Virus record (IMG/VR): IMGVR_UViG_3300045988_147305
From: a virus
Taxonomy: Duplodnaviria > Heunggongvirae > Uroviricota > Caudoviricetes
Direction: 5' to 3' (one strand)
Length of the DNA stretch: 64,000 nt
Both the position numbers and the translations under genes were made by a program. Below, in pieces: positions 36,815 to 37,789 of this stretch. How positions within the stretch are numbered: the first letter of the stretch is position 1; every line of letters begins with the position of its first letter. The notes beneath the pieces were generated by a model, which saw only the letters and a program-made list of their open reading frames with translations, made no database searches and was not told the DNA's origin.

Positions 36815-37789
36815 ATGAACATCCTGATCATTGGGCGAAAATTTGCAGCCATCAGTGATGTGAAAACATATACGGAAATGTGGGCTTATAACCTGGCCTG
36901 CGCCTTTAGTGAGGCAGGGGTAACATTGCAATACCATCGTCCATATTCCCCTGGCGTCGAAAGCCCGGAGGATTATGTTGAAGCTGTGTTGACTGCTGCG
37001 ACCGCATGTTCTGCGAAGGCCATTTTGGCACCAGGATTGAGGTATTTTACTACGGTACCCAGGGAAATAGGCATGCAACTGTGTCGCCGATTCTCTGGAT
37101 GGGTAGCCCAGGTATATGACGGTTCTATGCTGGATTCGGCACCAGTCGATATTACTTTTACTGTCCGCGATGATACCTGGCGGTACCTGGATAATCCCGG
37201 CAGGTTAGAGCGTCATAATCGTTTTAACAAACATGTTGGATGGGCAGCGAATCAGGAGCTGTTCCATCTGGAAACCAAAACAGACGATGTTCTGCGTATT
37301 TTTGTAGACCACGCGGCATTTGATGTTAGTGGGTTTGATCACTCCTTAAGTATCCTTATGAACCTTCAGCGCCTGACCGTTCCGTATGAGGCCAAAACGC
37401 TGACCGATGACGGATTGGTTACCATTGAGCCGGGGAATATTTCGGTAACCCCATACAGACGAACTCCGGTACCAGCAACCGAATTTGCAGCTGAATTGCG
37501 TAAGAGTGACATTTTTATCGTTACGCATCCCGAAAGCCTTGGATTAACTGTTCTTGAGGCGGCAATGTGTGGAGCGTTGATATTAACTCCGCCCGATTGC
37601 CTTCCGCCGGATCGCCTGGAGTTGGTGAACCATATGGTTATCAAGTCGCGGATTGATTGGGATGAGGTTATTGCTCGCGTTGATCGCGTGAAAAATGCTG
37701 AAAAGGTCCAGTGTCACACCTGGTCGGCAATTGCGGAAAAGATGCTTGAGACGTTTATCACGCAGAAACCGTCGCGCGGTAACGGATAA
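36815..37789 (+). CDS. GT-B type glycosyltransferase-like protein (dbn position)
   Basis: C-terminal THPESLGLTVLEAAMCGALIL resembles the GT1-family E-x7-E motif. Confidence 0.45.
   Translation: MNILIIGRKFAAISDVKTYTEMWAYNLACAFSEAGVTLQYHRPYSPGVESPEDYVEAVLTAATACSAKAILAPGLRYFTTVPREIGMQLCRRFSGWVAQVYDGSMLDSAPVDITFTVRDDTWRYLDNPGRLERHNRFNKHVGWAANQELFHLETKTDDVLRIFVDHAAFDVSGFDHSLSILMNLQRLTVPYEAKTLTDDGLVTIEPGNISVTPYRRTPVPATEFAAELRKSDIFIVTHPESLGLTVLEAAMCGALILTPPDCLPPDRLELVNHMVIKSRIDWDEVIARVDRVKNAEKVQCHTWSAIAEKMLETFITQKPSRGNG

Follow-up and report, generated by a model that had tools for sequence, protein, structure and literature searches.

Bacteriophage P1 is the standard phage for transduction, and phage-plasmids of the P1-like kind disseminate resistance genes among Enterobacteriaceae. 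Temperate phages can alter the surface glycan of their hosts and block superinfection by means of Gtr systems, whose proteins are membrane proteins (a flippase, a GT-A-type bactoprenol glucosyltransferase and a GT-C-type enzyme) that use a lipid carrier, act by way of the periplasm and are expressed in lysogens. Canonical GT4 glycosyltransferases, another group with which our locus can be compared, carry a diphosphate-binding G-R...K pattern after the first strand of the C-terminal domain. Here, we analyzed a 64,000-nucleotide stretch of DNA (the window) from a Caudoviricetes virus, IMG/VR record IMGVR_UViG_3300045988_147305, focusing on the gene directly 3' of the helicase gene ban, which a first-pass annotation made from the letters alone had described as GT-B-type glycosyltransferase-like. 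The window represents a P1-like phage (Punavirus), with positions 35000–38600 being 99.1–99.7% identical to P1 and P1-like records, and the gene is P1 dbn ("downstream of ban"), whose product is 97.5% identical in amino acid sequence to P1 Dbn (AAQ14048); the first-pass annotation had missed this identity. Dbn was labeled "function unknown, possible glycosyltransferase" in the P1 record of 2004, and it appears elsewhere as P7 glt ("putative glycosyltransferase"), RCS47 "putative glycosyltransferase, Dbn" and RefSeq "glycosyltransferase family 4 protein". The glycosyltransferase finding as such has been public annotation since 2004; taken alone, it repeats a 20-year-old label of a non-essential P1 gene and changes little. 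What our analysis adds is a link between dbn and three overlooked P1 glycosyltransferase-like genes, pmgQ, pmgO and pmgP, with which it probably remodels a bacterial surface glycan, and a testable hypothesis of envelope remodeling. Literature searches returned no functional study of dbn, pmgO, pmgP or pmgQ.

The dbn open reading frame (ORF) runs on the plus strand from an ATG at 36815 to a stop codon ending at 37789 and encodes 324 residues. The 332-residue form found in databases starts from an in-frame ATG at 36791 that shares bases with the stop codon of ban (TAATG), and a GAGGA Shine–Dalgarno sequence lies 6–7 nt 5' of both candidate starts. Since Dbn homologs outside the P1 group start at the position matching 36815 and lack the N-terminal extension, the start coordinate chosen in the first-pass annotation is defensible. 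The intact 324-codon frame was found in 177 of the 179 P1-like loci with a full-length match. Among the P1-like loci, dbn occurred as 75 distinct alleles with a median pairwise ratio of nonsynonymous to synonymous substitution rates (dN/dS) of 0.11, and none of the 14 family-invariant residues varied. Thus dbn is a genuine gene rather than an ORF that arose by chance. We also noted irregular annotations of this gene: P7 glt (AF503408.1) is annotated from an internal start (287 residues) with its full frame intact, and ON470617.2 is 99.7% identical to the window at the DNA level, yet its dbn is split into two "hypothetical proteins", as it is in ON470615.2. The split in ON470617.2 probably reflects frameshift sequencing errors.

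We predicted the structure of Dbn with AlphaFold2 using 61 homologs. The model (predicted local distance difference test score, 95.2; predicted template modeling score, 0.91) displayed a complete GT-B fold in which two Rossmann-like domains face a cleft, and it could be aligned to solved enzymes; Foldseek placed it nearest to retaining "group 1" (CAZy GT4/GT5-type) glycosyltransferases with E values of about 1e-9. On the strength of this model, Dbn almost certainly has the GT-B fold that the first-pass annotation had assigned to it. The search with Pfam Glycos_transf_1 (PF00534) that had been proposed as a check fell just below the gathering threshold (23.9 versus 26.4 bits), a borderline match covering residues 221–307 alone. 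The same domain matched 16 of the 61 family members at E<0.01, and a precomputed database annotation assigns PF00534 to the 332-residue form; Pfam GT4-conflict gave a weak match to one of the 61 members (E 0.006). The earlier term "GT1-family" is correct in Pfam naming, whereas in CAZy terms Dbn is GT4-like and not GT1. PHROG 2518 (unknown function) matched the protein over its full length (E 5.7e-232; residues 1–324 on profile positions 9–332 of 332). A search of the Protein Data Bank with the single protein yielded nothing significant, and the family profile retrieved as its sole match the EX7E block (ESLGLxxLEA) of 8xsg.

The C-terminal E-x7-E motif on which the first-pass annotation had relied was borne out: E240 (nt 37532–37534) and E248 (nt 37556–37558), lying within THPESLGLTVLEA, were invariant in the 61 homologs and in 43 distant sequences, and hhalign paired them with E281 and E289 of Escherichia coli WaaG. 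In the model, a second invariant block has D165-H166 after the strand formed by residues 160–164 and D175 before the helix formed by residues 177–184, and from this topology it appears to occupy the place of the Arg and Lys of the GT4 G-R...K pattern. This apparent replacement, like the Pfam score under threshold, would fit a catalytically inactive GT-B-like protein that serves as a scaffold or chaperone for other enzymes, as Asp1/Gap1 does in serine-rich-repeat protein glycosylation. We regard such a role as improbable for Dbn, as the EX7E glutamates and 12 residues around the interdomain region are invariant across 25–60% identity and are also kept in the Dbn fusion proteins inspected, purifying selection on the gene is strong, and the best structural matches are active enzymes. 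Dbn is presumably catalytically competent.

Of 1.84 billion representatives, the Dbn family profile recovered 422 proteins, 331 of them at E≤1e-10, and hardly any of 185,579 bacterial and archaeal species genomes contained a family member; by these searches, Dbn relatives would form a small, separate and sharply delimited family. The protein has no transmembrane or hydrophobic segment (maximum KD19, 1.55) and an isoelectric point of 5.6, and is predicted to be soluble and cytoplasmic. NCBIfam gave no usable match for Dbn, PmgO, PmgP or PmgQ, and PADLOC matched none of the four to its defense-system models.

The first-pass annotation had drawn attention to the unusual pairing with the replicative helicase. 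The pairing itself is real in the P1 lineage: in 155 of 183 P1-like loci, no more than 200 bp separated the end of ban from dbn. Two IMG/VR scans returned nearly exclusively near-identical P1-like prophages plus four distant loci, and the distant contexts came from scanning metagenomes and looking up exact proteins. No DnaB-like gene lay within 1 kb of the Dbn-like gene in any of the 29 distinct distant relatives with usable flanks (23–58% identity). The ban–dbn adjacency appears to be a gene-order peculiarity of the P1 lineage that carries no functional coupling. A false lead is thereby removed, the helicase pairing being a lineage-specific accident of gene order.

Conversely, the neighbors of Dbn relatives in E. 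coli phage EP_H11, a Citrobacter phage-plasmid and huge uncultured phages mapped to pmgO, pmgP and pmgQ of the window. In EP_H11, PmgO-like, PmgP-like, Dbn-like and PmgQ-like genes follow one another in this order with overlapping ends, and stop/start codon overlaps between Dbn-like genes and their partners were seen in many loci. A same-strand PmgQ-like gene abutted the Dbn-like gene in 10 of the 29 distant loci, and a PmgQ-, PmgO/P- or pyruvyltransferase-like gene did so in 17; in L239, a PmgO-like gene adjoins the Dbn-like gene. Covalent fusions were also found, namely a single ORF of ~797 residues consisting of Dbn-like, PmgQ-like and third (X) domains in L167/L168, and one ORF joining PmgO-like and Dbn-like domains in P0148. 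All 22 Dbn-positive phage records fell within the 32 PmgQ-positive records of the 50,697 searched, and they represent three independent lineages. In the annotated records of EP_H11 and the Stenotrophomonas phage RAS14, every entry reads "hypothetical protein".

These associations bear on the possibility that Dbn is a stand-alone accessory enzyme acting on a host acceptor, for example by adding a single sugar to the LPS (lipopolysaccharide) core or to a small molecule, with the links to pmgQ and pmgO reflecting no more than shared "moron" regions. Consistent with that idea, P1 dbn lies 7.8 kb from pmgQ in another operon with tail genes between them, some P1-like phages carry pmgQ and pmgO without dbn, and 12 of the 29 distant loci had none of the tested partner families beside the Dbn-like gene. 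The fusions, the stop/start overlaps, the presence of PmgQ in 22 of 22 Dbn-positive records and the recurrence of the partnership in a bacterial operon (described below) all speak for a partnership, and we consider solitary action quite unlikely. It is probable, with a good margin for error, that Dbn forms a functional module with PmgQ, PmgO and PmgP.

Apart from these partners, the Dbn family showed further domain arrangements. In cassettes of huge phages (L168, 990–3389; L167, 2682–5081; L003, 9703–10395; L005, 9011–10426), the PmgQ-like gene is followed by domain X, which has ~230 residues and is matched by no Pfam model; domain X is fused to the PmgQ-like domain in L005 and to Dbn-like plus PmgQ-like domains in L167/L168, and no counterpart was found in the P1-like window. 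Many family members are fusions of 520–630 residues, such as L010 7947–9605 (RAS14), P0199, P0201, P0217/P0222/P0235/P0241/P0244 and P0186, in which the additional part is a C-terminal alpha/beta-hydrolase-like domain (GxSxG), an S-adenosylmethionine-dependent-methyltransferase-like domain, a beta-rich domain of ~190 residues or a tandem Dbn-like duplication.

The nature of the partners suggests what the module might act upon. Profiles of PmgO and PmgP built from phage loci only, with WaaZ excluded, matched E. coli WaaZ, the Kdo-III transferase of the LPS inner core, over nearly its full length (E 1.6e-9 and 2.2e-7, respectively), and the two ORFs overlap by about 100 nt. The PmgQ profile matched WaaJ marginally (E 2.1e-3), and the top matches of PmgQ included the protein-glycan extenders Skp1 GalT, GlyE and glycogenin. 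Larger phage cassettes also encode KdsB, the synthetase for the cytidine monophosphate-activated form of 3-deoxy-D-manno-oct-2-ulosonic acid (CMP-Kdo), above NCBIfam cutoffs, and further hold an RfaE-domain-II-like nucleotidyltransferase fused to a cupin, an LpxD-like acyltransferase, and GT-D-like and pyruvyltransferase-like proteins. The only bacterial loci, in Brucella/Ochrobactrum pseudogrignonensis, have an operon whose last genes are WaaZ-like and Dbn-like and whose other products are a large GT4 protein, a Poly_export protein, a Wzz-like protein, an ABC-2 permease and an ABC ATPase; by its gene content, this is an ABC-transporter-dependent surface-polysaccharide locus. Surface-glycolipid chemistry is suggested alike by the homology of the partners to WaaZ, by the KdsB encoded with them and by the capsule-operon setting in bacteria. 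These family partners and contexts (WaaZ-like, GT8-like, KdsB, capsule-type ABC-transporter operon) lend indirect support to the host-surface modification that the first-pass annotation had put forward.

The same contexts bear on the alternative that Dbn glycosylates phage DNA bases and thereby evades restriction. Phage enzymes of this kind include the T4 alpha- and beta-glucosyltransferases (AGT, GT72; BGT, GT63) and the HY126 5-hydroxycytosine arabinosyltransferase. dbn follows ban in the same region as dmt, and genes for RecA and methyltransferases are found close to the cassettes of huge phages, as this alternative would have it. We nevertheless think it very improbable: the structural matches of Dbn to T4 AGT/BGT and HY126 rank below about 27 ordinary GT4/GT5 enzymes, adjacency to ban is lineage-specific, the partners point to polysaccharide chemistry and the bacterial context is one of polysaccharide export. 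In addition, P1 DNA is known only as methylated, with no hypermodified base known, and P1 is not known to have a hydroxylated-pyrimidine pathway. Deletion of dbn left antirestriction activity unchanged (PMC9024508).

Next, we considered how dbn is controlled. Downstream of the C1 operator Op72ab/Oban, which comprises one exact and one two-mismatch match to the C1 operator consensus in inverted arrangement, the gene order is tRNA-Asn, tRNA-Thr, a small membrane protein, an SPFH lipoprotein, a CAT-anticodon tRNA, ban and dbn. The ban stop and dbn start overlap or are 21 nt apart, depending on the start used, and the C1-operator-controlled promoter lies 4.5 kb upstream. Since there is no terminator between ban and dbn and a strong hairpin (z = −3.7; centroid, −17.6 kcal/mol), bordered by runs of A and T, separates dbn from the convergent baseplate gene 5, the two genes are likely co-transcribed. 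The sigma-70 promoters that the P1 record places inside ban are weak consensus matches; our scan showed one 9/12 site at 36154–36181, and promoter-like sites in it were rarer than in shuffled sequence. dbn transcripts have been detected during lytic P1vir infection (bioRxiv 10.64898/2025.12.28.696737). The ban operon and the pmgL–pmgQ block each have a C1 operator, and both gene sets would therefore be under C1 control. Because C1 represses the ban operon, lysogenic conversion in the classical sense, one of the roles suggested in the first-pass annotation, is doubtful.

In the mechanism that we propose, Dbn, encoded last in the C1-repressed ban operon, would be made once repression is lifted, and its partners would be PmgQ, PmgO and PmgP, whose non-essential genes lie 6–8 kb away, likewise behind C1 operators. 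The P1 quartet would represent the dispersed form of a glycan-building cassette that is contiguous or fused in distant phages. Working on the cytoplasmic side of the inner membrane with nucleotide sugars of the host, it would add to or re-route a surface glycolipid of the infected cell. The most plausible target in E. coli would be the LPS core, whose terminal glucose serves as P1's own receptor. The LPS core is an obvious candidate because the kinds of enzyme in the P1 set (GT4, GT8 and WaaZ) are those of the host waa set and because Kdo-III glycoforms dependent on WaaZ lose the terminal GlcIII-HepIV of the outer core (PMC6358824), P1(S) fibers bind the terminal core glucose (bioRxiv 10.1101/2022.07.24.501295) and galU is required for P1 infection (PMC7553319). 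The E. coli phage-resistance atlas contains no data on waaZ. Taken as a whole, an accessory pathway in which active Dbn alters a host surface glycolipid together with PmgQ and PmgO/PmgP is, in our estimation, an evenly balanced proposition. That the acceptor is a surface glycolipid of the LPS-core type falls somewhat short of an even chance, and the donor, the acceptor and the biological benefit are suggested here from the partners and gene contexts.

Several observations weigh against this glycolipid-directed pathway. In-frame deletion of dbn, pmgO, pmgP or pmgQ caused no plating or antirestriction defect, nor did deletion of ppp or pap (PMC9024508), and CRISPR-interference knock-down was neutral (PMC10695390). 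As the genes lie behind C1 operators, the lytic cycle may leave little time for a change in the outer membrane. Detectable kinship of Dbn with Waa enzymes is confined to the motif, in that alignment of its family to E. coli WaaG and WaaB by hhalign was limited to the EX7E region and an hmmsearch of the Dbn profile against Waa proteins gave no match, leaving no detectable sequence kinship to WaaG/WaaB beyond EX7E. The D-H...D residues apparently in place of Arg/Lys could mean a different donor, metal dependence or different chemistry. The co-occurrence counts rest on few independent lineages, and the P1-like phages phi456 and JK004 keep pmgQ and pmgO with no detectable dbn; the Dbn/PmgQ/PmgO/PmgP set is not obligatorily complete. 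Finally, D3-like phages have PmgO relatives within their head-gene modules, with two records calling them "structural protein", and MptE-like domains are also found in protein glycosyltransferases.

The last two points favor the main competing explanation, namely that Dbn, PmgQ and PmgO/P decorate structural proteins of the P1 head, tail or fibers in the cytoplasm before lysis; the stability of the virion, its adsorption or its recognition by immune systems would change as a result. Giant viruses and some mycobacteriophages do glycosylate virion proteins. In the P1 record, a late promoter is assigned to the pmg block, which also bears the historical label "morphogenetic" (pmgO and pmgP are marked "putative morphogenetic function" in P1 and "head morphogenesis" in P7), the protein-glycan extenders among the PmgQ matches would suit protein acceptors, and a non-essential phenotype is what virion decoration would be expected to give. 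Conversely, no P1 virion glycosylation has been reported, text searches of the virion proteomics paper for "glycos" gave no match, the bacterial homologs reside in a polysaccharide export operon rather than a protein-glycosylation locus, the KdsB-, RfaE-II-like and LpxD-like cassette genes point to LPS-type sugars, and the sole characterized relative of PmgO/P that we found is the LPS enzyme WaaZ. We hold virion glycosylation to be unlikely.

A broader form of the glycolipid-remodeling hypothesis, which we offer tentatively and consider less probable than its failure, is that P1 and a scattering of unrelated phages share a hitherto unrecognized module that rewrites the LPS core or a Kdo-containing glycolipid after induction and so strikes their own receptor. 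The phages concerned would be P1, E. coli EP_H11/IME392, Stenotrophomonas jumbo phages and uncultured marine and freshwater phages, and the module would comprise Dbn as a divergent GT-B enzyme with D-H...D for the usual Arg/Lys, GT8-like PmgQ, WaaZ-like PmgO/PmgP and sometimes a phage KdsB and heptose- or lipid-A-type enzymes. With the receptor destroyed or masked, progeny would be spared adsorption to debris and superinfecting phages would be excluded. If this is true, several P1 genes of "putative morphogenetic" function would be envelope-remodeling enzymes, and a phage-encoded change in the LPS core would affect transduction efficiency, superinfection and host range.

Table 1. Positions in the window of dbn, its candidate motifs, its putative partner genes and the associated control elements
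Feature	Coordinates	Strand	Basis
dbn coding sequence, 324-residue conserved core; GT-B (GT4-like) glycosyltransferase	36815..37789	+	
Possible 8-codon N-terminal extension of dbn (MQWNEEKP)	36791..36814	+	Database-annotated start; overlaps ban stop codon
Invariant D165-H166 ... D175 block, start of C-terminal Rossmann domain	37307..37339	+	Invariant columns; position deduced
E240-x7-E248 motif within THPESLGLTVLEA, nucleotide-sugar-binding signature of GT4-type enzymes	37532..37558	+	Invariant in homologs; aligned to WaaG
ban, DnaB-type replicative helicase, directly upstream of dbn	35421..36791	+	Pfam DnaB_C 5e-108, DnaB 2.7e-35; annotated ban in P1
Bivalent C1 repressor operator (Op72ab/Oban), ban operon promoter	32226..32253		C1 consensus matches; said to control ban in the P1 record
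Intrinsic terminator hairpin, bidirectional, separating dbn from convergent gene 5	37810..37836		11-bp stem, 5-nt loop
C1 operator (O26/Op82), divergent control region ahead of pmgL–pmgQ block	42660..42676	-	Consensus match; annotated in P1
pmgO, MptE-like/DUF115, homologous to LPS Kdo-III transferase WaaZ	43724..44386	+	Profile match to WaaZ; PHROG 4603
pmgP, paralogue-like second WaaZ/MptE-like protein	44284..44910	+	Profile match to WaaZ; weak Pfam MptE-like match
pmgQ, GT8-like GT-A glycosyltransferase, conserved Dbn partner in other phages	45581..46282	+	

Other features of the window were noted around these genes. Seven matches to the 17-bp C1 operator consensus were present, compared with 0.02 expected by chance; located at 11583, 13253, 28704, 32226/32237, 42660 and 48425, they mark the C1 regulon, and among them are the operators preceding the ban operon and those on either side of the pmg block. 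A 78-residue membrane protein and a 275-residue SPFH/Band7 lipoprotein (Pfam Band_7 9.7e-31; phrog_200) are encoded at 33993–35037 (plus strand), with tRNA-Thr on one side and the CAT-anticodon tRNA on the other. Reference P1 has plp/upl and tciA-C at this place, and MH422554 shares the window variant ("putative SPFH domain protein"); the SPFH module looks like a swapped accessory module inside the C1-controlled operon. Just 5' of it, at 33839–33959 (plus strand), we detected a sub-threshold Rfam match to the small RNA STnc100 (37.8 bits versus a gathering score of 47; E 1.1e-5). A tblastn search with a Citrobacter phage-plasmid ORF that overlaps tRNA genes brought up positions 33389–33472, and the same ORF also matched three real tRNAs. 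We rejected this stretch as an additional tRNA-like element, given that neither ARAGORN nor Rfam called it and its alignment to the window tRNAs was unconvincing. Within the pmg region, pmgM (42982–43560, plus strand) resembled VRR-NUC/Holliday-junction-resolvase-type nucleases (Pfam 3e-4; phrog_5702 4.8e-27), and pap (47919–48425, plus strand) resembled HAD phosphatases of the polynucleotide-kinase-phosphatase type (Pfam HAD_PNKP 3e-11). Judged by these matches, the labels "morphogenetic" for pmgM and "acid phosphatase" for pap are probably misleading.

We finally compared the locus with the known systems. The window gene is the same gene as P1 dbn, P7 glt and RCS47 dbn, in the same place between ban and gene 5 and followed by the same terminator; it is a naturally occurring allele, carried by a variant of P1 in which the SPFH module takes the place of tciA-C within the ban operon, and its conserved core begins 8 codons downstream of the start annotated in P1 and 37 codons upstream of that annotated in P7. 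In comparison with the retaining GT4/GT5 enzymes (sucrose-phosphate synthase, BshA, PimA/PimB', GlgM and WaaG), Dbn is only about 10–15% identical, has a shortened C-terminal domain and lacks the N-terminal Gly-rich loop. It is more similar to ordinary GT4 enzymes than to the phage DNA glycosyltransferases of the GT63, GT72 and HY126 types, and does not group with the latter. Gtr systems (GtrA/GtrB/GtrC) resemble the function proposed for Dbn in that both would alter the host surface glycan and block superinfection on behalf of a temperate phage, whereas Dbn, a soluble GT-B protein with no transmembrane segments encoded in a C1-repressed operon, falls outside the Gtr type. In contrast to the E. 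coli waa set, the P1 genes are phage-borne, dispersed and non-essential, and homology is demonstrated solely between PmgO/P and WaaZ, with the PmgQ–WaaJ likeness being marginal and that of Dbn to WaaG being at the motif level. In both sets, the proteins are soluble or peripheral cytoplasmic proteins, and the P1 quartet shows the same three enzyme kinds as WaaG/WaaB (GT4), WaaO/WaaJ (GT8) and WaaZ.

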